Positions 26 through 61,631 of a stretch of DNA of 64,000 nt are shown here, one piece after another (positions within the stretch are counted from its first letter, which is position 1; each line of letters begins with the position of its first letter). Below the pieces are notes generated by a model, which worked only from the letters and a program-made list of their open reading frames with translations, was not told the DNA's origin and did not search any database. This stretch comes from Gemmatimonadota bacterium (GTDB lineage: Bacteria; Gemmatimonadota; Gemmatimonadetes; Palauibacterales; Palauibacteraceae), in the NCBI GenBank assembly GCA_035464655.1, contig DATHRZ010000012.1, positions 4,225 through 68,224 on the forward strand, in the 5' to 3' direction. A program made the translations under genes and the position numbers.

Positions 26-799
26 ATGCCCCATATCGAGCGCGTGCAGGTCGATGACATGGACGTTCCCGTGGAGGTTCGCGGTCGCTCGTCCGAGTCC
101 CTGCTCTTCCTGCCCGGGATGGGCGTCCACCCGCGTCACTACGCACCGGGACTCGATCGCCTGGCCCATCACTTCACGGTCGTCGCCCCCGACCTCTCGT
201 TCGGCTCGAACCGGTCGCTGCCACTCGACTACACGGGCTACCTTGCCTGCGTGGATGCCGTCGCCGACCGCCTGGCGCCGGGCGCGCCGCGAGTCGGGCA
301 CTCGCTCGGCGGCCTGCTCGCCCTGCAGGGTGACACGCCGGCCGTAGCGCTCTCGCCCCTGCTGCCGCTGCCCCTGGGCTGGGTCGGGCAGATCTGGCGA
401 GCCGTGCGTCTGCAGCTCCGCGAGATCGCCGGTATCGAGGGTGCCCGGGGCGTTCGGTGGGCGCTGGCGATCCTGGCCGAGTACGTCGGCATGGCGCTGA
501 CCGCGCCCGAGAAGCTCTTCCCGGCTCTCGCCTGTACCCATATCGAGTTCGGCGACGCTTTCCGTCCGAGCGCGCCGTCGATCCGTCTCGTCCTGGGACG
601 GTTCGACCAGCTGTACCGACGGTCGGAATACGGCCGCTTCGTCGAGGACGTGGGGCTGGACGCGAACGCCGTACGCTGGCTGCCACATGGGCACGACTGG
701 CCGGTCACCCGCCCCGCGGTGATGGAGGCCGAGGTGTTGTCCGCGCTGCAGGATTGGAGCGGCTCCGGCGGAATCAGTTCTGGAACAGCGCCAGCGTGA
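26..799 (+). CDS. alpha/beta-hydrolase fold protein
   Basis: ATG at 26; nucleophile elbow G-H-S-L-G-G (GxSxG) about 100 aa in; size typical of the fold. Confidence 0.6.
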   Translation: MPHIERVQVDDMDVPVEVRGRSSESLLFLPGMGVHPRHYAPGLDRLAHHFTVVAPDLSFGSNRSLPLDYTGYLACVDAVADRLAPGAPRVGHSLGGLLALQGDTPAVALSPLLPLPLGWVGQIWRAVRLQLREIAGIEGARGVRWALAILAEYVGMALTAPEKLFPALACTHIEFGDAFRPSAPSIRLVLGRFDQLYRRSEYGRFVEDVGLDANAVRWLPHGHDWPVTRPAVMEAEVLSALQDWSGSGGISSGTAPA

Positions 800-1974
800 T
801 CGACAGGCGCTGAAAGCTCTCCTCCACGCCGGACCCTCCGAGATCTCCGCGGGAGCCGATCTCGACCGCCACGTCGACCCGGGCCTGTTCTTCGGCCACG
901 CGTACCCCCAACCCCATCGTCAATGCGCGCTCCGATAGCTGGTCGCGACCCCGGGGGTGGAAGGGAAGATCCGTCCGGCGCAGGCCCAACCGCAGCGGCA
1001 CGTTGACACCCATGAGCCGCGTACCGGTCAACTCCGCGCCGATACCGGCCCACACGACGTTCGACGCGACGAAGTCGTCCGAGCCACCCTCGGCGCCCGA
1101 CCAGCCCGTCCAGCCGCCGGCCCCGGTGAGCATCAGGCGCTCGGAGACCCTGGCGCTGGCGCCGAGCTCGAAAGCCGCGGGCATGTCGAACTTTCGCGTC
1201 AACCCCTCCGCACCGATCGTGTCACGCTCGGCGGTGAGCGCGCCCTGGAGCGACACGTCGCCGCCGAGATGGATGTCGTCCGTCAGACCGACGGCGGCTC
1301 CGAAGCGGAAGCGTCTGCCGCTGTATTCCCAGTCGGTGATCCCCGACACCGATCCGAGGAAGCGTGACGGGTCGTCGATCGCCGGTTCGAAGTCCCGCCG
1401 GAACGACTGCTGCAGACGCCCCGTGACAATCGCGTACTCCGCGCCCAGGCTCACGGAGCCGAGACGACGCGCCAGGGTGAAGTTCACCGAGCTGAGCCCA
1501 CCGTCCTGGCTCCGCTGCTCCGTGAACGGGAAGGCGCCGTCCTCGACGGATAAAGTGTCGACGAAGGAAAGCTGCCAGTCCTGATCCAGCTCCGCCGCAA
1601 AGGCGACTCCGGCCGCCCACTCGTCGAACGGAATCGCGCCCCGGAGCACGGCCATCCGACTCCGGCCCGAGTCGGCATTGCCCGCGTCGCCTTTCACCGA
1701 CACCCCCTCCGGGGCGTAGGTGATCCCGAGGACGGGCTGCCTGTACAGGGCGATGTCGGCCGGGTTCCGGGCCGATACGCTGCCCGTTTCGAACCCGATC
1801 CCCGTACCGCCGAGCGCGGCGGAGCGGGCATCGATCGGCGATACCGGCGCGCCCAGGCCGAGCGCCGTGACGGGCGTCTGGGCGACGGCCGGCGGCGCTC
1901 CCATCGTCAGAGCCAGCCCTGCACTGGCCACCGCGATCACTACCCGGCCCACCGCTCGCCCCGTATGCCGCCGC
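774..1974 (-). CDS. outer-membrane beta-barrel protein (FadL/porin-like, family uncertain)
   Basis: Internal start MRRHTG...; signal peptide ending AVAQ; alternating amphipathic G/S/A-rich strands through to the C-terminus; the ORF-track N-extension overlaps the upstream gene and is rejected. Confidence 0.5.
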
Positions 1975-1993
1975 ATTCCAGATCTCCTCGTCG

Positions 1994-3262
1994 TCATGGC
2001 AGGTCGAATCCGGTGGACGGCGTGAACACGATGCGCACGCGGGGAGCGCGCGCGGGATCTTCGCGATGGCCGAACTCCCAGTATGCCAGGCCCCCACCTT
2101 CGGGCAGCACCCGAACTCCCAGGTTGAGTTCCGGCATCGAGTCGGGATCGGAGGCCGCCCAGTTCTGGACCAGGGCAGTGATGGAAAGCTGGAGATCGCC
2201 TCCGGCCTCCATGTCCTCCGGCAAAATCTGCACCGGATTCGACGTGTTCACGCCGACCGGCGTCTTCGGACCGAACTCGAACGGGTTCGACAGCAGGCTG
2301 AAGATGCTCGCCAGCAGCGTGTCGGTCGTAGCGAAGGGCGCCGGCGGCGTACCCGTCGACGTCAACAGCAAAGTGGCCCGGTTGATTCGCGCGCCACGTA
2401 ATTCCACCCCGCTCAGCGACTCCGGCAACTCGAAGCTCACGTAGGTGCGGGCCGCGGGAAGCCCGCCGAGGCGCAGACCCGCTCCCGGCGCGGGCGTCGG
2501 CGGATCGAAGACGAAGGTGTTCGCCGTCGGCGAGCGCAGCGTCTCGACCAGGGTGTCGCGCCCGACCGGCTTCACGTCGAACGCGAGAACGACCTGCTCG
2601 ACCGCCAGCACGGTGCCGTCCACGGGGCTCAGCAGGGCGAGCCCGGTCCCGCCGTCGGCCGCGCGCCAGGCCCGGAGGAGCGAGTCCGTCTCGACGGTCA
2701 GGGGAAGAAACATGGTATCGGCGGCGAGTTCCTCGATCTCGAGGGCTCCCAGCAGTTCTCCCAGGTCCCCGCCCGGTGCCGTCCACGGATCGCCGTCCGC
2801 CGCGTTCGACCAGGTCGCCTCCCGGGTAACGAAGTCGCGGGTCAGGGCGTACGCCTCGACCGAGCCGCCGGCTTCCGGCACCTCCGAGCCTGTCGTATCG
2901 AAGACGAGGCGGAGGCGGCCCGACTCGAAGCGCTCGACGGCGAGGCGTTCCCCACCGACGAACACGGAATCGGGGAGAGTGCCGAATCGGGCGAGGATCC
3001 GCGCCCGGATGTCGGCCGTCTGAGCGACGAACTTGCTCGCGCTCGTCGCCGCAAGCGCGTAGTCGGTGTAGGTCGTATCGCGCCAGGCCGGAAGCTCCGT
3101 GGCCGACAGTTCGATCTCCACCGTCGCCTGGCCCGCGCCGGGGGCGGAGTCGGGGTCGACGCCGGTGAGCGTGTCCTCCGTGCAGGCCCCGATCGAAGCT
3201 GCGCCCAGTCCGGCGAGCAGCAATCCGACGGCGCGCTGATGTCGCGCGAGCGATCGTCTCAC
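1994..3262 (-). CDS. hypothetical lipoprotein
   Basis: GTG start ([27 protein letters not shown]); lipobox-like IGAC with Cys; overlaps the cdd stop by 4 nt; no recognisable catalytic motif. Confidence 0.5.
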
Positions 3263-3684
3263 GCGGCGTCTCCGCCGGTCGCCGCCTGGAGATCGAAGGC
3301 GGCCGGCAGCAGCTCCGAAAGCCTCCATGCGGCTTCGCTGCCCGAGGTTCCGCGACTCACGATCCGCAGTTCGCGGCTGAACTCCGCCAGGGCCTGGCGG
3401 CACATTCCGCAGGGAGCCACCGGCTGTGCGTCGTCGGAGCACAAGTAGAGTCGCTCGAAGTCCGTCGCGCCGTCCGCGACGGCGGCCCCGAGCGCGACGC
3501 GCTCGGCACAGATCGTCACCGGATAGGACGCGTTCTCGACGTTGCAGCCCGCGTACGTGCGGCCATCTGAGGCCTCGAGGGCGGCACCCACCCGGAAGCG
3601 CGAGTACGGCGCATAGGCGGCCCGCCTGGCCGCTTCGGCAGCCTCCCGCAGGGGCGTCCAGCTCTCGTCCGGCTCCACGTTCAT
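3259..3684 (-). CDS. cdd: cytidine deaminase
   Basis: Zinc-binding motifs C-A-E-R-V-A and P-C-G-M-C-R-Q; 141 aa from MNVEPDE. Confidence 0.85.
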
Positions 3685-3686
3685 CC

Positions 3687-4815
3687 TCACACGTCTCCGT
3701 CGATTGCGATTCTCGGTATCCGGGAACTCCACCCGGTCAGGATCTCGTAGGCGATCGTCCCGCACGCGTCGGCCAACTCCTCCGGCGTGATCTCGGCTTC
3801 CCCGTCGCGCCCGAGCACGGTCGCCACGTCCCCGGGCTCCACGTCGTCGCGACCGGTCACGTCGACCACCGTCGAGTCCATCGTGATGACGCCGCGCGTC
3901 GGAACGGAGCGCCCGTGAATCAGGGCCCGTCCGCGGCCCGTCAGGCAGCGACGCAGACCGTCGGCGTAGCCGATGCCCAGCGTCGCCAGCCGCGCCCGAC
4001 CCGGCGCCGTCCAGGTGGCGCCATAGCTGACCGTACTCCCCGGCTTCACGTCTCTCACCTCGAGCACCCGGGCCCGCACGTGCGCGACCGGCGCCGGACG
4101 CCGGTCCACGACCTCGGCGCCATACAGCCAGACGCCCGGGCGGACGAGATCACCTGCCACGCCGGAGTACTCCATTGCCGCCGCACTGTTCGCGGCATGG
4201 CACAGCCCGGGGTCGACGCCCGCCGCCCGAAGGGCCCCGATCGATTCGCCCAGGCGCCGCCATTGTTCACGCGTCGCGGCCTCGTCCGCCTCGGCCGAGT
4301 GAAAATGCGTGAACGTAGAGGCGAGCGTCGCGCCGCCCTCCCCGAGAATCGCAGCGACCCGGGGCGCGACGCGCGCGACCTCGTCCCACGGGATGCCGAA
4401 TCGTCCCATTCCCGTGTCGATCTCGAGGTGCACGGGAAGCCCGGCGCCGCGGGCCCGCGCTGCGGCCGCGCACGTCGCGAGCGCCGCCGGGCTGCCGACC
4501 ACGGGCTCGAACCCGGCGGCCAGCAGCGCCTCGAGGTCGGCCGGCAGGGTCGGCGTGAACACGACGACGCGACCGTCCCAACCGTCCTCGCGGACCCGCA
4601 CGGCTTCGTCCAGCGTCGCCACCCCGAACCCGTACGGATCGAGCGGACCGAGGGCCCGCACCGCCAGCCCGGCCCCCGTCCCGTACGCATCGGCTTTCAC
4701 CATGGGAAGCATCCGGCAGCCGGCGGGGATACGTTGGGCGATGGCGGTGTAGTTGGCTCTCAACGCGCGGCAGTCGACCTCCATCCAGGCGCGCCGCATC
4801 GGTTCGGTCGGCATG
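3687..4815 (-). CDS. alr: alanine racemase
   Basis: PLP-lysine region [10 protein letters not shown]; about 376 aa from ATG at 4815; the ORF-track extension to 5576 is antisense to mazG and rejected. Confidence 0.85.
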
Positions 4816-4907
4816 GTTTCCAAGCGGGCTAGTATACCGGCCCTCACAGGGAGGAGCAACAGATTTCCAGCGAATCGAGACATCCGCGTGGCGACGAACG
4901 GCGCCAC

Positions 4908-5726
4908 CTGGACCGGGCGGTCGACTCCGACGATAGGCTCGGGCGGGCCCTCGCGCTCGTCCGCTATCTGCGCGAGCACTGCGACTGGGACGCGCGACAG
5001 ACGCCCGACTCGCTGCTGCCCTACCTGCTCGAGGAGGCGAACGAGGTGGCCGACGCCGTGCGCCGGGCCGACGACGCCGAGCTTCCGGGCGAGCTCGGCG
5101 ACCTCCTGCTCAACCTGGCCTTTCAGATCGTCCTCGCCGAAGAGCGGCGGGCGTTCGGGGCCGCGGAGGTCGTGGCCGAGCTCGAGCGCAAAATGGTCGC
5201 CCGGCACCCGCACGTGTATGGCGATGCCGACGAAGCACCCGACTGGGAGCGCATGAAAGCCGGCGAGCGGGCCGAGCGGGCCGACGCCGGGAACGGGCGG
5301 CGCCGCGACCCGCTCGCCGGCGTTCCGGACGGCCTCGAGCCGCTGAGCCGTGCCCTGCGGGTGCAGGAACGGGCGGCGGGCGTCGGGTTCGACTGGCCCG
5401 ACGTGGCCGGCGCACTCGGCAAGCTGCGCGAAGAGATCGACGAGCTCGATGCCGTCGTCGACGGCCGGGCCGCCTCTCCCTCGTCGGCCGGCCCGCCGCC
5501 GTCCGCCGCCGTCGTCGACGAAGCCGGCGACCTCCTGTTCGCCGCCATCAACGTGTGCCGGCTGGCCGGCGTGCATCCGGCGGCGGCGCTCGCCGCCGCC
5601 ACCGATAAATTCGCCCGGCGCTTCCGGGCGGTGGCCGAGCGCTCCGGGGCCGCCGGCATCGACATGACGGCGGCCGACCTCGAGACCCTCGACCGGATGT
5701 GGGACGACGTGAAGCGGGGCGAGTGA
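4908..5726 (+). CDS. mazG: nucleoside triphosphate pyrophosphohydrolase MazG (5' end uncertain)
   Basis: MazG motifs RYLREHCDWDARQTPDSLLPYLLEEANEV and a second EEAGDLLFAAINV half-domain; homology starts about 45 codons upstream of the first canonical start (GTG at 5046) with no ATG/GTG/TTG in frame back to the TAG at 4830. Confidence 0.7.
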   Translation: MDRAVDSDDRLGRALALVRYLREHCDWDARQTPDSLLPYLLEEANEVADAVRRADDAELPGELGDLLLNLAFQIVLAEERRAFGAAEVVAELERKMVARHPHVYGDADEAPDWERMKAGERAERADAGNGRRRDPLAGVPDGLEPLSRALRVQERAAGVGFDWPDVAGALGKLREEIDELDAVVDGRAASPSSAGPPPSAAVVDEAGDLLFAAINVCRLAGVHPAAALAAATDKFARRFRAVAERSGAAGIDMTAADLETLDRMWDDVKRGE

Positions 5727-10558: not shown

Positions 10559-12493
10559 TCAGCGCAGGCCGATCCTGCGCCGCCAGTACCACTCTCCGCA
10601 CAACATTAGGGCCGCGAGCACGAAGGGCCACATCGCCCGTCCGCCCGTGGCGGCGGCACCCGCGGATCCGACCGTCGTGCCCACCAGCTCCCGCCCGACC
10701 GGTCGGGCCGGGAGCTCGCGTTCGGCGCCCTCGACCTCGAACGGCCGACCCGTGCGGAACGCCTCGCCGGCCGCGATGCCTTCGGCCACGAAACTGTGGG
10801 AGCCCGCCGGGGCCGGCGGTCCGGCGAGGGAGGCCCCGGGCGCCGCCGCCGTGTCTTCCCAGATCACGGTTCCGGCCGAATCCTGGATCGCGATCCGCAG
10901 GTCGCTCACCCCCGACGCCACTCTCCAGCTCACGGGTTCTCCGGCCGCCAGGCGTCTTCGAGCCAGCTCGACGGGACGGCGTTCAGGCGCCTCGAGCAGC
11001 CAGCTTGCGAGGCCGGCGAACAGCGAGCGATAGGCCTGCCGCGCCTCCCCGCCGCGCGACGCCCAGCGCCACGTGCCTTCGGCCGCGACGACCACGCGCC
11101 GCCGGTCCCCCGAGCGTGCGGCACCGATCGGTGCCCGTCCGGCGCCGGAGCGATTCCGCCGGAGCTCCAGGGGCGCCCATTCGTGCCCCTGCAGGTCGAA
11201 CAGGCGACTGACGGGGGGAAGCGCGGGATGATCGAGACCGCCGAGGAAGCCGGCGATCGGGCTCGGCGGCAGCGGACCTCCCGGATACCATTCTCCCGCT
11301 TGCGGCCCCCCGACGCGAAGCCCGGAGCCCGGCACGACGCCCGCGCCCCGGGCGAACCAGAGCACGCGCGGATGGCGGGCGGCCAGCGCGTCGAGCCACG
11401 CCGGTCCGGCCCCCGGCGTCCCCTGTACGACCAGCAACTCGGCCCGTGCGGCGTCGCGCCGGACGCGGTCGGCGTCACCCGTCGGCACGCGCTCCGTACC
11501 GGATCGAATCCAGCGATCGGGCCCCACTCTCAGCCACGCGCGCGCGCCCCCGGCGGTGGACCGCGCCAGCACGGGCAGAAGGTAGTGCGGCTCCCAGTCG
11601 GGATCGGCCGCCACTATCACGGCGCCGGCGGCCGTCGGTACGATCTCGATCCACACGCGATGGCGTGGACCGGGGCCGAGGGGATCCGCATCGGGTTCGA
11701 GCCGGATGTCGTACGCCCGCCAGGCGTCGCCCCCCCCTTCGAGCGCCACGACGCCTACCGGCACGCGGCGGGTTCGACCGGGCGTCGGCGCCTCGAAGCC
11801 GACGATCGACCGGGCCCCGTCGGGGCCCGTCACCGAGAGCGACGCGGAATCGGCAAGCCTCGTGTCGCCGATCCCTGCAACTTCGACGACGAGGCGGATC
11901 GTATCGCCGGCCTCGGCGGCGGCCGGCGCGTCGACGCCGCGGATGGCGAGCCTGGCCGGACGCTCCGCCACCCGCACTTCGCGGACGGTGAGGCCGAGTC
12001 TGCGCGCTACCGGGCGGGCCTCCTCGCGGTCGTCGAGCTCTCCGTCGGTGAGGAGCACGACACGGTCGGCACCGGCCGCGCGCGCCGCTTCGAGAGCCGG
12101 CACGACGCGACTCGCCACATCCGCCGGGCCGGCGCCGTGGTCTTCGGCCGCGGCGCGTGCCGAATCGCCGAACCACACCGTCGTTTCCCGTTCGATGTCA
12201 CGGGCAAGGAGCGCCGTGGAGTCGGCCCGTGACATGCCGCCCGGGGAAGCCGGCAGGGACATGCTGAGGGATCGATCGACGAGAAGGGCGGTGGTCGGTC
12301 GGTCGCCGCCGGCACCGGAGAACGGGGAGGGAAGCCACCAGCCGGCGAGCAGCAGGAAGAGCGCGCATCCGCGCAGTATGGCAGGGCCGGCGCGGCCGGG
12401 AACCGGCTCTTCGAGCCTGGCGTACGCCCACCAGCTCACCGCGGCGCCCACGAGCGCCGCGAGTACGACGGGAATCAGGCCGCCCGCTGCCAC
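10559..12493 (-). CDS. membrane protein with von Willebrand factor A domain (BatA-like N-terminus)
   Basis: Two N-terminal TM helices, MIDAS-like D-R-S-L-S, VVLLTDGE, C-terminal TM; 644 aa. Confidence 0.55.
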   Translation of the reverse strand: MAAGGLIPVVLAALVGAAVSWWAYARLEEPVPGRAGPAILRGCALFLLLAGWWLPSPFSGAGGDRPTTALLVDRSLSMSLPASPGGMSRADSTALLARDIERETTVWFGDSARAAAEDHGAGPADVASRVVPALEAARAAGADRVVLLTDGELDDREEARPVARRLGLTVREVRVAERPARLAIRGVDAPAAAEAGDTIRLVVEVAGIGDTRLADSASLSVTGPDGARSIVGFEAPTPGRTRRVPVGVVALEGGGDAWRAYDIRLEPDADPLGPGPRHRVWIEIVPTAAGAVIVAADPDWEPHYLLPVLARSTAGGARAWLRVGPDRWIRSGTERVPTGDADRVRRDAARAELLVVQGTPGAGPAWLDALAARHPRVLWFARGAGVVPGSGLRVGGPQAGEWYPGGPLPPSPIAGFLGGLDHPALPPVSRLFDLQGHEWAPLELRRNRSGAGRAPIGAARSGDRRRVVVAAEGTWRWASRGGEARQAYRSLFAGLASWLLEAPERRPVELARRRLAAGEPVSWRVASGVSDLRIAIQDSAGTVIWEDTAAAPGASLAGPPAPAGSHSFVAEGIAAGEAFRTGRPFEVEGAERELPARPVGRELVGTTVGSAGAAATGGRAMWPFVLAALMLCGEWYWRRRIGLR

Positions 12494-43827: not shown

Positions 43828-44685
43828 TCAGGACGCAGTCTCCCGCTCCGCCGATCGGGCGGCGGCGCGCGCTTCCGGCGCCGGTTCGACACGCCCTGAG
43901 GCCCCCGCCGTCCGGCCGGGTTCCTCGGATTGCAGGCGCCGGCGCAGCTCCTCGGGCTTCAGGTCGCGGACCAGCAGCCCGCGGTGGGCGAGGGAGATCT
44001 GCCCGGTCTCTTCGGAGATCACTACGACAAGGGCGTCCGTCTCCTCCGACAGCCCGATCGCGGCGCGATGCCGGGTACCCATGGTTCGATCGATGAGCGG
44101 CGACTGCGACAGCCGGAGGATGACGGCCGCCGCCGAAGCGACCCGATCCTGGCGAACGATCACCGCGCCGTCGTGCAGCGGCGAATACGGCGAGAAGATC
44201 GTGGCGAGCAGCTCGGGCGAGATCTCGGCATCGAGCGGCGTTCCGTTGTCGACGTGCGCCGTGAGGTCGACTTCGCGCTGGACGGCGATGATCCCACCGA
44301 TCTTCGCCTTCGCCAGGCGGTCGGCGGCGTCGACGATCGCGTCGAACACCTGCTCGCGCTCCTGGGTGGCGAACAGCCGGAACCAGCGCGTGCGGCCGAG
44401 CCGCGCCAGCGCGGTGCGCAGCTCCTGCTGGAAGATCACGATCAGGGCGAAGGCGCCGTATGTGAACACCTGCGACAGCAGGTAGGGAACCAGCCGGAGC
44501 TGCAGGGCCTGCGAGATCGCGTAGACGCTGACCAGGACGACGAAACCGATCAGGACCTGAAACGCGCGCGTCCCGGCATAGGCGACGAGCAGACGATAGA
44601 CGAGATACGACACGACGACGATCTCGATGACGTCGGTCCAGTCGAGCCTCAGAAAGCCGAGATACTCGAGAATCCCCTGCAGCAT
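43828..44685 (-). CDS. cdaA: membrane-anchored diadenylate cyclase (c-di-AMP synthase) CdaA
   Basis: Three N-terminal TM helices; DAC-domain motifs HDGAVIV and GTRHRAAIGLSEETDA. Confidence 0.8.
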   Translation of the reverse strand: MLQGILEYLGFLRLDWTDVIEIVVVSYLVYRLLVAYAGTRAFQVLIGFVVLVSVYAISQALQLRLVPYLLSQVFTYGAFALIVIFQQELRTALARLGRTRWFRLFATQEREQVFDAIVDAADRLAKAKIGGIIAVQREVDLTAHVDNGTPLDAEISPELLATIFSPYSPLHDGAVIVRQDRVASAAAVILRLSQSPLIDRTMGTRHRAAIGLSEETDALVVVISEETGQISLAHRGLLVRDLKPEELRRRLQSEEPGRTAGASGRVEPAPEARAAARSAERETAS

Positions 44686-44695
44686 CGTCTCCTCG

Positions 44696-45559
44696 TCAGC
44701 CGTTCGGGCCGGCGCGCCGGATGGCGTCGGCCAGGTCGAGCGCGCGCCGCGCCGGTCCCACGTCGTGTACCCGGAAGATCCGCGCGCCCCGTTCGAAGGC
44801 CGCGAGGCAGGCGGCCAGCGTGCCCTCGAGGCGGCGCTCGACCGGCACGCCGAGCACCTTTCCGATGAACGACTTGCGCGACGGGCCGACGAGCACCGGA
44901 TAGCCGAGCCTGGTGAGCTCGGCCGTACGGGCCAGCAACTCGAGATTGCCGTTCGTCGACTTGCCGAATCCGATTCCCGGGTCGATCACGATCTGCTCAC
45001 GCGCGCAGCCGGCTTCCCTCGCCCTCCGCGCACGCTCCTCCAGCCACCGCGTGACCTCGCCGATGAGATCATCGTAGCCGGTATCCTCCTGCATGGTGCG
45101 GGGCGAGCCACGCATGTGCATGAGTACGAGTCCGGCGCCCGTCCGCGCACACAGGTCGCCGATCGCGGGGGCGTTCTCGAGCCCTGACACATCGTTGACG
45201 ATCGCGGCGCCGGCGCCCAGCGCCCGTGCGGCGACCTCGGCCTTCATCGTATCAATGGAGACGGTGACGCCGCGCTGCGCCAGAGGCTCGACGACCCCGG
45301 AGAGGCGAGCCCACTCCTCGGCGGGCTCCACGGGAGCGGCGCCGGGGCGGGTGGACTCGGCGCCGACGTCGATCACGTCTGCCCCCTCGTCGACCATTCG
45401 CAGGGCATGCTCGATGGCCAGGGCCGGCTCGACGTAGCGATCGCCGTCGGAGAACGAATCGGGCGTGACGTTGAGCACGCCCATCACGACGGGCCGGTCG
45501 AGCGGAACCGCGCCCCCACGAACCTGCCAGGCGACGGCGGGGGCGACGGTGGGGGTCAA
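44696..45559 (-). CDS. folP: dihydropteroate synthase
   Basis: MGVLNVTPDSFSDGD and GADVIDVGAESTRPG pterin-binding motifs; start provisionally TTG at 45559. Confidence 0.85.
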   Translation of the reverse strand: MTPTVAPAVAWQVRGGAVPLDRPVVMGVLNVTPDSFSDGDRYVEPALAIEHALRMVDEGADVIDVGAESTRPGAAPVEPAEEWARLSGVVEPLAQRGVTVSIDTMKAEVAARALGAGAAIVNDVSGLENAPAIGDLCARTGAGLVLMHMRGSPRTMQEDTGYDDLIGEVTRWLEERARRAREAGCAREQIVIDPGIGFGKSTNGNLELLARTAELTRLGYPVLVGPSRKSFIGKVLGVPVERRLEGTLAACLAAFERGARIFRVHDVGPARRALDLADAIRRAGPNG

Positions 45560-45572
45560 GGCGGTCGCCCGG

Positions 45573-47570
<1,998 letters not shown>

Positions 47571-55979: not shown

Positions 55980-56627
55980 TCAATCCGACGCCGACGGGCC
56001 GGGAACGAGCACGACGTCATCGCCGTCGAGACGTACTTCGTCGACACCCGGGAACAGGGGCACGACGATCGTTCCGTCCCTGACCCTGACCCCCTGCTGC
56101 TCGAGGCTCCGAACGACTGCCGGCAGCATCAACGGAGGAACGACGAACGCCCCGATCTGCAGGCTTCGCACCCGAAGCCACGTCTCGCCCGGACCGCCCC
56201 GAGACGGCACGAGTCCGGCGATCACCCGCGTCGTGTCGCCCATCGTCGACCTGAGGGCATCGGGGGCGGAGAAGCCGTCGAAACTGTCGGGGCGCAAGCG
56301 GGCGGACAGGACGACGACGGTGTCCTGCACGTCCACCTGCGGGTCTTCAATCCCCGGTGGGAGGACCGGGCCGCTCCGATAGGTAAGAAGGCTCTGCAGC
56401 TCCGCCTCGCTGAATCTCACCTCGTCGTCCATCCCCTCCTGCGCGATCCGGTTCAGCCTGTCCTCCGCCTGCCCGGCCAGGCGTTCGCTGGGTTCGCCGC
56501 TGCTGCTCAGCTCGAAGCGGCCCATCCAGTCGCCGATCGAATCACGGGCCAGCCAGGCGCCACCGGCGAGCAGCGCCAGCAAGACGACGCAGCCGACGCT
56601 TCTCGCGCATCCCCTGCCGGACGCCAT
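55980..56627 (-). CDS. hypothetical exported/membrane-anchored protein
   Basis: N-terminal hydrophobic segment CVVLLALLAGGAWLA; no known motif; 10 nt downstream of thpR. Confidence 0.4.
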   Translation of the reverse strand: MASGRGCARSVGCVVLLALLAGGAWLARDSIGDWMGRFELSSSGEPSERLAGQAEDRLNRIAQEGMDDEVRFSEAELQSLLTYRSGPVLPPGIEDPQVDVQDTVVVLSARLRPDSFDGFSAPDALRSTMGDTTRVIAGLVPSRGGPGETWLRVRSLQIGAFVVPPLMLPAVVRSLEQQGVRVRDGTIVVPLFPGVDEVRLDGDDVVLVPGPSASD

Positions 56628-56666
56628 GGCCTGTCCTCGTTTCGGGTTCGTGTTCACCGGCCGAGA

Positions 56667-57260
56667 CTACGCCGACGTGTCGTCGGCGGGAAGGCCCGCG
56701 TCTCCCAGTTCGATCGCGGCGAGGCATTCGTATCGCGCACCGCCGGGCTCCAGATGGCTTCGCATGAGGTCGAGGGACGAGACCGGGAACGGCGCGTCGA
56801 TACCGACGTCGTCGGTGGCGGCGACGAACGGGCGAAACTCGCCGGGGCGCGCGTCGCGCTTCGCCCGGCCCAGCGTAATGTGGGGCCGGAACGACCGTGC
56901 GTCACGACCGAATCCGTCCCTGGCGAGGCGCCGCTCGAGCTCGTCACGCAACAGCCGGAGACGCGGGCCGGCCTCGACGGAGATCCATATCACCCGCGGC
57001 CGGCGCGGTGACGGGAACGCCCCGACCGGCCCGAACCCCCCTTCGAACGGTTCGAACTCGGCGGCGACCTCGCGGAGAATCGCCGTCACGGCCGCCCGAT
57101 CCTCGTCGTCGCGGTCCCCCAGCCAGCGCAAGGTCAGGTGGAACGCCTCCTCCGGGGTCCAGCGAACCGGAAGCTCTGCCTGCGCGAGTTGCGCCGCGAC
57201 GTCGGCCAGGGCCCGTCGAACCGGGGCCGGAAAGTTCACGGCAACGAACAGACGCACGGC
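56667..57260 (-). CDS. thpR: RNA 2',3'-cyclic phosphodiesterase (2H family, ThpR/LigT-like)
   Basis: Two H-x-T-x motifs (HLTLRW and HITLGR); GTG start at VRLFVAV. Confidence 0.75.
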   Translation of the reverse strand, partial: AVRLFVAVNFPAPVRRALADVAAQLAQAELPVRWTPEEAFHLTLRWLGDRDDEDRAAVTAILREVAAEFEPFEGGFGPVGAFPSPRRPRVIWISVEAGPRLRLLRDELERRLARDGFGRDARSFRPHITLGRAKRDARPGEFRPFVAATDDVGIDAPFPVSSLDLMRSHLEPGGARYECLAAIELGDAGLPADDTSA

Positions 57261-57496
57261 ACCTCCCCTGCCAGGAACGCCACGCCACGACTCCCTGCTC
57301 CATTCATGGTTCTCGGTCCCGTTCAACGTGTCGCCAATCGTTCCACCCGGGCAAGCACCCGACCGAGCCGAGGAAGGAAAGGGCCTGCTCGCCCGTGGCG
57401 GGCCGGCCCCCTACCATGTGACTCCGGGTGCGCGATCATCCGACGCGGCCGCCGGGGAGGCGGTGCGTTCGTCATCCCAACGTCGACGAGAAATCC

Positions 57497-57988
57497 ATGG
57501 ACCAGTTCCGCATCGCGGTCAGCAAGGACGGCAACCAGTTCGCGGCCGCACATTTCATCACTCACGGAAACGGTCAATCCGAGCCCCTGCACGGCCACAA
57601 CTACCGGATCGGAGCCGCCCTCTCGGGACCGCTCGACGACTATCACCTCGTGTTCGACTTCGTCCGCCTGAAGAGGGACATCGAACTCGTGGCCGCCGAA
57701 CTCGACCACCGGGTACTGCTGGCGGCCGACAACCCCGCCCTTCCCGTGGAGCGCTCGGCCGAGGATGAGGTCGTCGTGCGCAGCGGAGCGGATCGCTACG
57801 TGTTTCCGGCGCGCGACGTCGTAATCCTCGACATCCCGAACACGACGGCGGAGATGATCGCGGCGTGGATCGCCGACCGCCTGCTCGAGCGACTTGCCGA
57901 CGACGCCGACCGGCTCACGAGGATCGAGGTCGAGTTGGAAGAAACGACGGGCCAGTGCGCCGTCGTGCGCCGCGACCTGTCCCGATGA
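57497..57988 (+). CDS. 6-pyruvoyl-tetrahydropterin synthase family protein (QueD/PTPS-like, Cys-less)
   Basis: HGHNY zinc motif; the segment before it is S-E-P-L-HGH instead of the QueD-type C-x3-HGH; 163 aa; ATGA overlap with pabB. Confidence 0.75.
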   Translation: MDQFRIAVSKDGNQFAAAHFITHGNGQSEPLHGHNYRIGAALSGPLDDYHLVFDFVRLKRDIELVAAELDHRVLLAADNPALPVERSAEDEVVVRSGADRYVFPARDVVILDIPNTTAEMIAAWIADRLLERLADDADRLTRIEVELEETTGQCAVVRRDLSR

Positions 57989-59490
57989 CCGACCCGGCGG
58001 TCGCCACCGTCGCTGCCGCTCCGACCCCCGAAACCGTGTTCGCGGGCCTTGCACACCTTCCCTACGCGCTGTGGCTCGACTCGACGGCCGACGCCGGGGA
58101 CAGCGGGCGCTGGTCTTTCGTCACGGCCGACCCGTTCGCGGTCCTCCGGGCGCGCAACGGGTTCACGACATGGATCACGGCCGACGGTGTGGCGCCGCTG
58201 GCCGGGTCGCCGTTCGCGGAGCTCGGCGCTGCGCTGGATCGCATGAAGTCGCCGGTGTCGACGCCGATCCCGTTCGACGGTGGCGCCGCCGGGTTCATCG
58301 CCTACGAGGCGGCGGGCGAGTTCGAGAGGCTGCCGCCGCCTCCGCCGCGAGATCACGATCTGCCGGACGTTCACCTCGCGTTCTACGATGTCGTGGTCGG
58401 CTGGAACCACGAGACCGGCGAGTGCACGGTCGTCTCGAGCGGACGGCCCGCGACCGGAGCCACGGGCCGGCGACGCGCCGAGCGGCGCCTGGGCGAGGCC
58501 CTCCGCTGGCTGTCCGGCGAGAGCCCGGCACGCGGTTCCCTCGCGCCGGCCGACCGCGCCGGGGCCGAGGCGGCGAGCGGATCGCCCGTCACTATCCCGC
58601 GCCGACCCGTCGACGACGTGCCGTGGCTCAGCTCGACGACGAGCAGCGCCGAATACGAAGAGGCGGTCGCGCGGGTGATCGGCGCGATCCGCGACGGCGA
58701 CGTCTACCAGGTGAACCTCTCGCAGCGCTTCTCGGCCCGCGTGGCCGCCGCTCCGATCGACATCCACCGCGAGCTTCGCCGCCGTAGCCCCGCGCCGTAC
58801 GGCGCCGTCGTACGAGCCGGCGACGCGACGATCCTCAGCTCGTCGCCCGAGCGCTTCCTGCGCGTGACCCGCGACGGCGTCGTCGAAGCGCGACCGATCA
58901 AGGGCACTCGGCCACGCGGCGCCGATGCCGCCGCCGATGCGCGGCTGGCCGACGAGCTGCGTTCGAGTGCCAAGGACCGCGCCGAGAACCTGATGATCGT
59001 CGATCTCCTCCGAAACGACCTGTCGCGCGTTTGCCGGCCCGGCTCGATTCGCGTTCCCGAGCTGTTCCGACTCGATTCCTGGGCGACCGTACACCACCTG
59101 GTTTCGGTGGTGCAGGGCCGTCTGCGACCGGGCGTCGGGCCGGAAGAGTTGCTGCGTGCGACGTTTCCCTGCGGTTCGGTGACGGGGGCGCCCCGGATTC
59201 GCGCCATGGCGATGATCGCCGACCTCGAGCACGTGGCACGGGGCCCATATTGCGGAGCCATCGGCTACTTCGGGTTCGGCGGCGACATCGACCTTTCCGT
59301 GGCGATTCGCATCCTGGTCGCGCACGGCGGGCGCGTCGACTTCCACGCCGGGGGAGGCGTCGTCTACGACTCCGATCCCGCCGACGAGTACCGGGAGACC
59401 CTGGCGAAGGCGCGGGCGATCATCGGGTCCCTCGAGGCCGTCGGGCTACCGGAGCGCCCGGAGCCGGTCACCCGGGAGGCGCTCACGTGA
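57985..59490 (+). CDS. pabB: aminodeoxychorismate synthase component I (chorismate-binding enzyme)
   Basis: Chorismate-binding C-terminal domain (PIKGTRPRG, AENLMIVDLLRNDL, SVTGAPRIRAM, GAIGYF); N-terminus PabB-like; TrpE cannot be excluded. Confidence 0.7.
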   Translation: MTDPAVATVAAAPTPETVFAGLAHLPYALWLDSTADAGDSGRWSFVTADPFAVLRARNGFTTWITADGVAPLAGSPFAELGAALDRMKSPVSTPIPFDGGAAGFIAYEAAGEFERLPPPPPRDHDLPDVHLAFYDVVVGWNHETGECTVVSSGRPATGATGRRRAERRLGEALRWLSGESPARGSLAPADRAGAEAASGSPVTIPRRPVDDVPWLSSTTSSAEYEEAVARVIGAIRDGDVYQVNLSQRFSARVAAAPIDIHRELRRRSPAPYGAVVRAGDATILSSSPERFLRVTRDGVVEARPIKGTRPRGADAAADARLADELRSSAKDRAENLMIVDLLRNDLSRVCRPGSIRVPELFRLDSWATVHHLVSVVQGRLRPGVGPEELLRATFPCGSVTGAPRIRAMAMIADLEHVARGPYCGAIGYFGFGGDIDLSVAIRILVAHGGRVDFHAGGGVVYDSDPADEYRETLAKARAIIGSLEAVGLPERPEPVTREALT

Positions 59491-60113
59491 TTCTCCTGAT
59501 CGACAACTACGACTCGTTCTCCCACAACCTCGCTCGCTACCTCGAGGAGCTCGGCGAGTCGGTGCGAGTGGCCCGCAACGACGCGCTGACCGTGGAGGAG
59601 GCTCTCGGCGTCGGCGCGAAGGCGATCGTCATTTCACCCGGACCGGGCCGCCCCGAAGACGCCGGGATCTCGATCGGCGTGATCCGTGGCGCCCCGCCGA
59701 CCCTGCCGATCCTCGGGGTCTGCCTCGGCCAGCAGGCGATCGGCGTCGCCTGCGGGGGCGCTGTCGTGCACGGGCCGGCGCCCGTACACGGGAAGCTGAC
59801 CGTGGTGCATCACGACGGCGAAGACCTGTTCGCCGGCATTCCCTCGCCCTTCATGGCGACCCGATACCACTCCCTCGTGGTCTCGGACGAGCTGCCTGCC
59901 GCTCTGCGGGCCCTCGCACGAGCCGACGACGGAAGCCTGATGGCCCTGCGCATGCTCGACCGTCCCGTCTGGGGTGTCCAGTTCCACCCCGAGGCCCTGC
60001 TCACCGAGCACGGACACGCCGTACTCGCCAATTTCCTCGCCCTCGCGACCGGGCGCGCGCCACGCGGCCTGGCACGGGCGCTTCCCGCGCCGGAATCAGC
60101 CGCGACGGGCTGA
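59487..60113 (+). CDS. pabA: glutamine amidotransferase component II (PabA/TrpG)
   Basis: GTG start in GTGA overlap; class I GATase triad context GVCLGQQ...HSL; 208 aa. Confidence 0.8.
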   Translation: MILLIDNYDSFSHNLARYLEELGESVRVARNDALTVEEALGVGAKAIVISPGPGRPEDAGISIGVIRGAPPTLPILGVCLGQQAIGVACGGAVVHGPAPVHGKLTVVHHDGEDLFAGIPSPFMATRYHSLVVSDELPAALRALARADDGSLMALRMLDRPVWGVQFHPEALLTEHGHAVLANFLALATGRAPRGLARALPAPESAATG

Positions 60114-61631
60114 ACGCCGACTCACGCCGCTTCCCACCCGCCGCCGATAGCCGAGCGCCTCGGCCACGTGATCGGCGCCGACCCGGTCCGCCGCCGCCAG
60201 ATCGGCGATCGTTCGGGCCACCCGCAGCACGCGATGGCTGCCCCTGGTGCTCAGCCCCGCCTGCCGAGAGGCCGCGGTCAGCAAGGCGCCGGCTTCGTCG
60301 TCGAGCCGACCGTGTCTTCGCAGTCCGTGCAGATCGAGGGCCGCATTGGGCCCGGCCTGCCCCCGACGCCGTCCGACCCGGCGAGCGGCAGCGACCCGCC
60401 ACGCCACGATCTCGCTCGTTTCCGCCCTGGTGTCGGCGTGCACGCTCCAGACGGCCGAGGACATTTCGAGCGTCATGTCGATGCGGTCGAGCAGCGGGCC
60501 GCTGACCCGCGACAGGTAACGCCGAATCGTCCATTCGTCGCACACACAACGATCGTCGCCCGACGTCACGAACCCGCAGGGGCAGCCGTTCATCGCCGCT
60601 ACGAGTTGAAAACGAGCCGGCATCCGCAGCGCCCCGCTGGCCCGCACGAGCCGAACTTCTCCCGATTCGAGTGGCTGGCGCAACGCCTCCAGCACGCCGG
60701 AACGAAATTCACCGAGCTCGTCGAGAAACAGCACACCGTGATGCGCCAGCGACACTTCACCGGGGCGGAGCCTGGTTCCGCCGCCGACGAGGCCAGCGGC
60801 GGTAGCGGTATGGTGGGGAGCACGATACGGCCGGCGGCTCAACAAACCCTCCGCCGGGTCGAGCAGGCCCGCGACGCTGTGCACGATGCTCGCCTCGATC
60901 GCCTCGTCGCGTCGTAGCGGCGGCAGCAGACCGGGCAGCCGTCGCGCCAGCATGGTCTTACCGCACCCCGGCTCGCCGATCAGCAGGATGTGGTGCCCGC
61001 CGGCCGCCGCGATCTCGAGAACTCGCTTCGCCACGTGGTGCCCGTTCACATCCGACAGGTCGGGCGACCGCGACGCCGCCCGGGACGGGCGCTTGGAGCG
61101 ACCGATCGGGAGCTTCGTCTCGCCCCGCAGATGAGCCACGAGCTCGCCCAGCGTCGATACGCCGCGGACGTCCAATCCACCAGCCACGGAAGCTTCCGCG
61201 AGGTTGGCGGCAGGCACGATGAGCGTGCGGACCTCGGGGTCGGGGGCACAGGTCAGGGAGACGGGCAGCACGCCACGCGCCGGTCGGACGCCGCCGTCGA
61301 GCCCGAGCTCGCCGAGGGCCGCCAGCCCGTCGAGTGCCGCGCCGGGAATGTGGCCGGAGGCCGCGAGAATGGCCACCGCGATCGGGAGGTCGAAGGCCGC
61401 CCCCGACTTCGGCAGATCGGCCGGCGCGAGGTTGACCGTGATGCGGAGCCCCGGAAGCCGAAGGCCCGAACGGCTGGAGGCCGCCCGGATACGCTCGCCG
61501 CACTCCCGCGCAGCGCCCGCCGCGAGCCCGACGATGACCAGCATGGGCGTGCCGCGCCGTATGGAGACCTCTACGCGGATCCGAGACGGCTGCAGGCCGA
61601 CGAGCGCGAACGTCGTAATCGATCGGTACAC
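60096..61631 (-). CDS. YifB/ComM family Mg-chelatase-like AAA+ ATPase
   Basis: N-terminal Lon-protease-like domain; Walker A GEPGCGKT; VLFLDE; C-terminal Mg-chelatase subunit ChlI domain; 511 aa. Confidence 0.85.
   Translation of the reverse strand: MYRSITTFALVGLQPSRIRVEVSIRRGTPMLVIVGLAAGAARECGERIRAASSRSGLRLPGLRITVNLAPADLPKSGAAFDLPIAVAILAASGHIPGAALDGLAALGELGLDGGVRPARGVLPVSLTCAPDPEVRTLIVPAANLAEASVAGGLDVRGVSTLGELVAHLRGETKLPIGRSKRPSRAASRSPDLSDVNGHHVAKRVLEIAAAGGHHILLIGEPGCGKTMLARRLPGLLPPLRRDEAIEASIVHSVAGLLDPAEGLLSRRPYRAPHHTATAAGLVGGGTRLRPGEVSLAHHGVLFLDELGEFRSGVLEALRQPLESGEVRLVRASGALRMPARFQLVAAMNGCPCGFVTSGDDRCVCDEWTIRRYLSRVSGPLLDRIDMTLEMSSAVWSVHADTRAETSEIVAWRVAAARRVGRRRGQAGPNAALDLHGLRRHGRLDDEAGALLTAASRQAGLSTRGSHRVLRVARTIADLAAADRVGADHVAEALGYRRRVGSGVSRRSARRG

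Follow-up and report, generated by a model that had tools for sequence, protein, structure and literature searches.

An operon of a PTPS-III-type gene with pabB and pabA in a Gemmatimonadota bacterium is predicted to supply both building blocks of folate

A stretch of 64,000 nucleotides from a Gemmatimonadota bacterium (GenBank assembly GCA_035464655.1, contig DATHRZ010000012.1, positions 4,225 to 68,224; hereafter the window) carries three overlapping genes at 57497-60113, which begin with a paralogue of 6-pyruvoyltetrahydropterin synthase (PTPS) and continue with pabB and pabA of p-aminobenzoate (pABA) synthesis. Analysis of the sequence, a structural model and the analogy with known systems led us to propose that this operon most likely supplies both building blocks of folate, with the PTPS paralogue acting as a PTPS-III enzyme that would replace the step of the dihydroneopterin aldolase FolB; we put the probability of this reading at roughly three in four. 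The three genes are as follows (aa, amino acids).

57497..57988, + strand: putative PTPS-III-type 6-pyruvoyltetrahydropterin-synthase paralogue, 163 aa (PF01242 PTPS, E = 1.1e-22)
57985..59490, + strand: pabB, aminodeoxychorismate synthase component I, 501 aa (Chorismate_bind, E = 2.3e-90; Anth_synt_I_N)
59487..60113, + strand: pabA, trpG/pabA-type glutamine amidotransferase, 208 aa (GATase, E = 2.5e-49)

A sequence-only reading of this DNA had described a 163-aa PTPS-fold gene joined to pabB and pabA through ATGA and GTGA overlaps, and the coordinates as well as the Pfam and NCBIfam matches agree with that description. According to the sequence and the list of open reading frames (ORFs), the PTPS gene extends from an ATG at 57497 to a TGA at 57986-57988, which is overlapped by the ATG of pabB (57985-57987), and the TGA of pabB (59488-59490) overlaps the GTG of pabA (59487-59489). 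The start codon of the PTPS gene could be fixed because its homologues are 163 aa long. The long ORFs over the PTPS gene and pabB (pabA lies outside that list) have a third-position GC content (GC3) of about 0.84, which is the strong third-position bias typical of real genes in a window of 69% GC. The 4-nt overlap between pabB and pabA was also seen in four related Gemmatimonadota contigs (L002, L004, L006 and L007). Judged from the sequence, these overlaps suggest translational coupling, by which enzymes of the pterin branch and the pABA branch would be kept in step.

The identities of the second and third genes were examined with the NCBIfam models. TIGR00553 (pabB) was the sole model for which the second protein passed the curated cut-off (351.7 vs 328.4), and the protein stayed under the cut-off of every TrpE, isochorismate synthase and salicylate synthase model (trpE_most, 382.3 vs 517.7). 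It carries the motif RPIKGTRPRG, in which the lysine of PIKGT is K306 (AAG, 58900-58902); we take this lysine to be a discriminator between PabB and TrpE, with K274 in E. coli PabB as against PIAGT in TrpE. The NCBIfam cut-offs and the PIKGT lysine thus ruled out an assignment of the second gene as trpE. The third protein passes TIGR00566 (trpG_papA) with 196.6 against a cut-off of 121, and it has its catalytic Cys79 at 59721-59723 and the His-Glu pair within VQFHPE.

The PTPS-III family was defined by a distribution anticorrelated with that of folB, and the bacterial PTPS-III and PTPS-I/III proteins of COG0720 reportedly go back to Pribat et al. in 2009 and Phillips et al. in 2012. A 2016 review by the laboratory behind the definition of the bacterial subfamilies assigns the signature ExxHGH to PTPS-III, CxxxHGH to QueD (PTPS-I), CxxxxxHGH to PTPS-II and CExxHGH to dual PTPS-I/III enzymes, the last of which are tied to a dual function in folate and queuosine synthesis (PMC5041015). 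In the PTPS of Plasmodium, Glu38 takes the place of the Cys found in other PTPS enzymes; the wild-type P. falciparum enzyme converts dihydroneopterin triphosphate to 6-hydroxymethyl-dihydropterin along with the conventional pterin product, and the 6-hydroxymethyl-dihydropterin product is lost in the mutants E38C, E38Q and E38L (Dittrich et al., PMC2229834). PTPS-III substitutes for FolB in many bacteria, as validated in eight prokaryotes (PMC3223725), and bacterial PTPS-III genes cluster physically with folate genes and replace FolB in bacteria that have no folB (PMC5041015, PMC3223725).

The active-site motif of the window protein is Q-S-E-P-L-H-G-H, in which Ser28 (57578-57580) occupies the position of the CxxxHGH Cys, Glu29 (57581-57583) follows it, and HGH is encoded at 57590-57598. 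The protein has the ExxHGH signature, with Glu three residues before HGH, and lacks the PTPS-II signature, the residue six before HGH being Gly26 (G-N-G-Q-S-E-P-L-HGH). His19, His32 and His34 are the predicted Zn ligands and align with those of the Plasmodium enzyme; an Asp70-His71 dyad and the pterin-anchoring Glu148/Glu149 are also present. The replaced Cys with its adjacent Glu, noted in the sequence-only reading as S-E-P-L-H-G-H, could be read directly in the sequence, and the Glu-for-Cys rule that it had given for Plasmodium PTPS and PTPS-III is borne out by the published signatures (PMC5041015) and the Glu38 mutants (PMC2229834).

Comparisons with solved structures pointed in the same direction. 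The best match by sequence was 1Y13, the PTPS of P. falciparum, with E = 5.5e-17 over query residues 6-159; P. vivax PTPS (2A0S) came second, whereas QueD of E. coli and PTPS of C. elegans reached about 1e-3 and 7e-4 in the same search. The alignment with 1Y13 (FAAAHFITHGNGQSEPLHGHNY against FNCAHFIAY-NGFRETLHGHNY) places Glu29 in the same column as Plasmodium Glu38 (FRETLHGH). An AlphaFold (AF2) model of the window protein, built on 44 homologues, had a predicted local distance difference test (pLDDT) score of 93.6 and a predicted template-modelling score (pTM) of 0.90. A Foldseek search of this model against the PDB returned four Plasmodium PTPS entries on top, with template-modelling (TM) scores of 0.86-0.89 and a root-mean-square deviation of about 2 Å over the full length, and two of these entries carry the label 'E37A/E37C catalytic residue mutant'. 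TM scores were just 0.5-0.6 for QueD, for the human, rat and C. elegans PTPS and for SCO6650; this gap arises because an insertion of about 40 residues (approximately residues 76-112) is common to the query and Plasmodium PTPS and missing from the QueD chains of 115-121 aa.

The resemblance to the Plasmodium enzyme, the founding PTPS-III, thus includes the length (163 aa vs 163 modelled residues), the full-length fold with the insertion that separates the central helix from the second half of the sheet, the shared columns of the three Zn-binding His and the catalytic Glu, and the pattern xE-x-L-HGH-NY found in both. On the other side, identity amounts to only about 28-29%, the Glu is preceded by Arg in Plasmodium and by Ser in the window protein, and the eukaryotic Plasmodium gene stands alone, whereas the window gene is the first of a bacterial operon with pabB and pabA. 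E. coli QueD (4NTK, 3QN0; PTPS-I) shares the T-fold, the Zn-binding His triad, the Asp-His dyad and the C-terminal pterin-anchoring Glu, but its motif is CxxxHGH, in which the Cys is essential, its chain of about 120 aa has no insertion, and it superposes with a TM score of about 0.5 and clusters with queC and queE.

An exhaustive HMMER search over 1.8 billion cluster representatives returned 2405 relatives at E <= 1e-3, 710 of them at E <= 1e-10. Among the best 150 representatives, ExxHGH was found in 142 (80 without and 62 with a preceding Cys), and a Cys at the PTPS-II position was flagged in none. Conservation followed the proposed active site: H19, H32, G33, H34, D70, H71, E148 and E149 were invariant and E29 at least 90% conserved in the 44 homologues, and in 104 more diverse sequences H19, H32, G33 and H34 remained invariant, with E29, D70 and E149 conserved to at least 90%. 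The closest database proteins (at most 94% identity) are metagenomic, and the few named ones are proteins of Gemmatimonadota metagenome-assembled genomes, which go publicly under '6-pyruvoyl tetrahydropterin synthase family protein' or, for P0075, '6-carboxytetrahydropterin synthase'. A scan of a genome collection with the window protein was uninformative, its sole return being a 117-aa Haliscomenobacter QueD with CxxxHGH.

To place the gene among its relatives, a metagenome scan with a 25-sequence alignment was evaluated, which yielded 80 loci at 43-59% identity, 79 of them with a PTPS ORF. Neighbours were identified by reference proteins from the window and annotated loci and by Pfam on representatives; all-against-all ORF clustering was noisy, since antisense ORFs in high-GC DNA cluster too, and became usable after a GC3 filter. 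Four types of neighbourhood were distinguished.

Type A: the Gemmatimonadota arrangement (L010-L013, L017, L019)
Type B: mch, a RimK-type ATP-grasp gene, a CitG-like gene and PTPS, with a HisA/F-family gene on the opposite strand (28 loci with CitG, 15 of them with MCH)
Type C: housekeeping genes, PTPS, pterin-4a-carbinolamine dehydratase and PabB (about 20 loci)
Type D: core pterin-branch operons (L020, L021, L030, L033, L026, L016)

Type D, whose members lie at 43-59% identity, bears most directly on function. It includes PTPS-HPPK-FolP in L020, where the PTPS is Cys-less (LEPLHGH), PTPS-HPPK in L021, PTPS-FolP in L016, and PTPS followed by an HPPK-FolE2 fusion in L030, L033 and L026 (501 aa; L030 8497-10002). 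In the last three, a GTP cyclohydrolase IB (FolE2-type), PTPS-III and HPPK adjoin one another, and FolB is not part of the group. An HPPK gene directly after PTPS without FolB is what would be expected if PTPS passes hydroxymethyl-dihydropterin on to the kinase. Judged by gene content, type D represents the classical setting of PTPS-III, and it does not depend on the Gemmatimonadota synteny. The assignment of the window protein to PTPS-III is based on ExxHGH without the Cys, the match of Glu29 with Glu38, the Plasmodium-like model and the folK, folP and folE2 contexts of the relatives, and on these grounds the PTPS-III reading proposed from the sequence alone is supported. As a further candidate, the PTPS-like protein as a stand-in for PabC was considered and ruled out, given the retained Zn ligands, dyad and pterin-anchoring Glu and the HPPK beside relatives.

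The association with pABA genes recurs as well. Four long Gemmatimonadota contigs, the same four that share the pabB/pabA overlap, carry PTPS genes of 52-78% identity in the same PTPS-pabB-pabA order; their synteny with the window extends from rpsB as far as the EamA gene, and the shared order is the LigT-like gene (-), PTPS, PabB, PabA and the Mg-chelatase gene (-). A fifth contig (L003, 54% identity) has the same flanks, with pabB and pabA fragmentary. In all, the trio is kept in Gemmatimonadota loci L002, L004, L006, L007, L010 and L019, and in about 20 further loci PabB follows PTPS directly or past just a small Pterin_4a gene. The recurrence of the trio order together with the 163-aa homologues means that the arrangement is not due to chance. 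With regard to the fragmentary genes, pabB, pabA and tsf are split at L003 8719-10334 and L004 1695-2546, which by their look are likelier assembly frameshift errors than real pseudogenes.

Compared with the bacterial PTPS-III and PTPS-I/III proteins of COG0720, the window gene shares the ExxHGH signature and the clustering with folate genes, but its partners belong to the pABA branch instead of being folK, folP or folE. The gene that would join the two branches lies elsewhere in the window, as the sequence-only reading had stated for 44696-45559, and its surroundings are as follows.

43828-44685: DAC/CdaA diadenylate cyclase gene, directly downstream of folP
44696-45559, - strand: folP, dihydropteroate synthase (Pterin_bind, E = 2.4e-81)
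45573-47570: FtsH gene, neighbour of folP

A folB-folK pair follows folP in many bacteria. Here the context of folP is ftsH-folP-cdaA (43828-47570), with no folB or folK adjoining. Pfam was run on practically all plausible ORFs of the 64-kb window, and no domain of FolB, HPPK (FolK), GTP cyclohydrolase (FolE) or PabC was found in them; our literature search found no paper on dihydroneopterin aldolase in Gemmatimonadota.

On this basis, we propose that the operon is a translationally coupled supply of both substrates of dihydropteroate synthase. GTP cyclohydrolase, encoded elsewhere, would provide 7,8-dihydroneopterin triphosphate, which a PTPS-III hexamer would bind via Zn (His19/His32/His34) and the pterin-anchoring Glu148/149. 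With Glu29 in place of Cys and the Asp70-His71 dyad as the acid-base groups, the side chain would be cleaved to give 6-hydroxymethyl-7,8-dihydropterin, a reaction that is normally carried out by FolB after dephosphorylation of the substrate. PabB and PabA would convert chorismate and glutamine to 4-amino-4-deoxychorismate, the precursor from which PabC, encoded outside the window, would release pABA; FolK, likewise outside the window, would pyrophosphorylate the pterin, and FolP would condense pterin and pABA to dihydropteroate. The analysis shows the motif, the metal-binding and catalytic residues, the fold of the model with its likeness to the Plasmodium enzyme, and the gene order with its conservation and the contexts of the relatives. 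In this scheme we infer the product, the phosphorylation state of the substrate, the co-transcription of the genes and a genome without folB, and the PTPS-III chemistry itself would carry over from what is known of the Plasmodium enzyme and from complementation studies published for bacteria.

Two sets of observations weigh against this reading. The trio is kept along with its whole neighbourhood, from rpsB through comM, so that its conservation is weak evidence for functional coupling; and of the 79 related loci in which a PTPS ORF is present, 28 belong to tetrahydromethanopterin islands, with CitG upstream and, in 15 of them, MCH as well. The products might then go to (dephospho)tetrahydromethanopterin instead of, or besides, folate, with the reaction of the enzyme itself unchanged, an alternative that we regard as unlikely. 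Both pABA and hydroxymethyl-dihydropterin are precursors of tetrahydromethanopterin too. By its gene content, type B is the 'archaeal-like' tetrahydromethanopterin/methylofuran one-carbon island, whose ATP-grasp and HisA/F genes are the counterparts of orf5/myfB and orf17, respectively, in Methylorubrum (PMC8141765). The nearest relatives outside Gemmatimonadota, P0130 in L009 (2261-3688) and P0124 in L008 (50-1484), at 43-50% identity and with CExxHGH, are fused to or adjoin a CitG-like gene near mch and the ATP-grasp ligase gene; the fusion occurs in P0130 (475 aa) and P0221 (373 aa). Further CitG-PTPS islands are found in L025, L031, L036-L038, L047, L048, L052, L054, L066, L070, L083, L085 and L089, among which L047, L083 and L089 reach PabB-PabA a few kb downstream, and L022 reads CitG-PTPS-HPPK. 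Several islands run on through an amino-acid-kinase-family gene, a short-chain dehydrogenase/reductase (SDR) gene, a dehydratase gene, PabB and PabA. Moreover, the whole tetrahydromethanopterin pathway is encoded by some soil Gemmatimonadetes (PMC5103831). Our literature search found no paper that assigns a role to PTPS-III, or describes a fusion with CitG, in bacterial islands of this kind.

The island proteins thus belong to the same family (43-50% identity), have the Glu signature and in some islands stand with pabB-pabA, but they carry CExxHGH and lie directly after, or are fused to, a CitG-like gene, neither of which holds for the window gene. None of mch, fae, the CitG-like gene, the ATP-grasp gene and the HisA/F-like gene is present anywhere in the 64 kb of the window or, in the Gemmatimonadota relatives, up to 10 kb to either side, and no methanopterin-pathway domain was found in the window. 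In a rough neighbour-joining tree, the syntenic Gemmatimonadota clade that contains the window gene stands apart from the CitG-linked clades. The window has a canonical folP, so folate synthesis requires the pterin anyway. Since sister clades lie in methanopterin islands, the operon could conceivably serve folate and methanopterin synthesis jointly in methylotrophic Gemmatimonadota.

A different pterin, such as a product of the 6-pyruvoyl-tetrahydropterin type for a biopterin-like cofactor, seems improbable to us. Wild-type Plasmodium PTPS also gives the conventional pterin product (PMC2229834), and genes of sister clades are followed by pterin-4a-carbinolamine dehydratase, joined in L044 and some islands by an SDR gene; the full order in the type C locus L044 is PTPS, a kinase-family gene, SDR, dehydratase, PabB and PabA. 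These two enzymes are hallmarks of biopterin metabolism. Against this, the window protein has no CxxxxxHGH Cys, the window has no gene for a dehydratase, a reductase or an aromatic amino-acid hydroxylase, and the window gene is coupled to pabB and pabA instead.

As a side observation on these neighbourhoods, pabB is directly preceded by a pterin-4a-carbinolamine dehydratase gene (Pterin_4a, E = 1.1e-27) in about 30 of the 80 loci, for example at L035 7342-7683, L051 8443-8820 and L044 3117-3476. The pairing occurs both in housekeeping contexts (PTPS, dehydratase, PabB) and in methanopterin islands (kinase, SDR, dehydratase, PabB, PabA); the window operon has no such gene.

That the gene is an ordinary QueD, a 6-carboxy-tetrahydropterin synthase for queuosine that neighbours pabB by chance, is highly improbable: the top-scoring NCBIfam match is TIGR03367 QueD, P0075 bears that enzyme's name and distant orthologues have the CExxHGH linked in the literature to dual function, but the match (66 bits) falls short of the cut-off of 89.25, the Cys is replaced by Ser, the 163-aa chain has the Plasmodium-type insertion absent from QueD, and no que genes lie nearby. 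The protein is also below the cut-off of the 6PTHBS model, and it reaches the cut-off of no NCBIfam model. The remark in the sequence-only reading that no queC, queE or queF lies next to the gene holds for the whole window by Pfam, and no queC, queE, queF or folE gene was found in the syntenic relatives either.

The origin of the Cys-less motif could be followed among the 120 closest homologues, in which a Glu fills the catalytic position in 119 cases and an Asp in the remaining one. At the position that precedes it, all 42 homologues at 65% identity or more and four others have Ser, Ala, Pro, Gly, Asp or Val; the other 74 have Cys, including the syntenic Gemmatimonadota orthologues P0067, P0077 and P0096. 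In the rough neighbour-joining tree, rooted with Plasmodium, the query and P0015 are nested in a Gemmatimonadota clade whose other members have CExxHGH, and therefore the Cys-less state appears to be derived within the lineage. On this tree, the ancestral gene at the locus is predicted to have had CExxHGH, the signature linked to dual folate/queuosine enzymes. It is possible, although we hold this only tentatively, that the dual-signature ancestor became a folate-only PTPS-III when the Cys was lost to Ser, Ala, Pro, Gly or Asp in the query clade. If so, the lineage would have acquired a separate QueD or given up de novo queuosine synthesis.

Upstream, the operon is separated from a divergent gene by a short region.

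57327..57496, no strand assigned: divergent intergenic region between the LigT-like gene (- strand) and the operon (+ strand), with no riboswitch or conserved structure

This region presumably holds the operon promoter. The tetrahydrofolate (THF) riboswitch suggested by the sequence-only reading was not found here: Rfam at E <= 10 returned microRNA and snoRNA noise alone, the fold had no excess stability over shuffled sequences (z = -0.86), and the intergenic regions of five orthologous loci gave no meaningful alignment and are essentially unconserved. These results ruled out a THF riboswitch or other leader RNA upstream of the operon. A scan of 57200-60400 for consensus promoters and terminators found none, a result that is uninformative for this phylum.

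The rest of the window is housekeeping DNA. It contains genes for alanine racemase and an asparaginyl/aspartyl-type tRNA synthetase, recG, ftsY, a complete dcw cell-wall and division cluster from mraZ through ftsZ, ileS, lspA, a dksA-type gene, divIVA, tonB/exbBD, the segment cdaA-folP-ftsH-hpt-tilS, then frr, pyrH, tsf, rpsB, a sigma factor gene, lepB, a conserved hypothetical gene and the LigT-like gene. On the 3′ side of the operon lie a comM/yifB-type Mg-chelatase gene in convergent orientation, then a nitroreductase gene and an EamA transporter gene. Between lepB and the LigT-like gene lies a 225-aa ORF without a Pfam match (55980-56657, - strand), and at the same position the related Gemmatimonadota contigs (L002-L007) have a gene of 200-215 aa, also without a match; judged from these sequences, the ORF is probably a real gene conserved in the phylum. 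Two other long ORFs with good coding statistics lack a Pfam match, namely 10559-12493 (- strand, 644 aa) and 774-3442 (- strand, 482-670 aa depending on the frame). The alanine racemase ORF (3687-5576, - strand, 629 aa) has a 5′ extension that is overlapped by a MazG-domain ORF (5046-5726, + strand); the racemase domains begin only at residue 267, so that translation of the racemase probably starts far downstream of the first codon of its ORF.

Enzymes of this class, with their motif and their grouping with folate genes, are known from work of 2008-2012, and the operon is an ordinary member of a known family. What is new here is the loss of the Cys within the query clade, which is a small evolutionary footnote in one clade of Gemmatimonadota, the occurrence of sister clades in methanopterin/methylofuran islands, and the lack of a leader RNA. 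The main value lies in annotation, in that generic or QueD names in public sources can be corrected to PTPS-III. With the present names and no NCBIfam model at its cut-off, metabolic reconstructions of this phylum would show either a FolB hole or a false queuosine or biopterin enzyme. The assignment opens no long-standing question; it would widen the range of the FolB bypass by a phylum that a secondary source does not list for bacterial PTPS-III, and it would close the pterin branch of folate synthesis in Gemmatimonadota.

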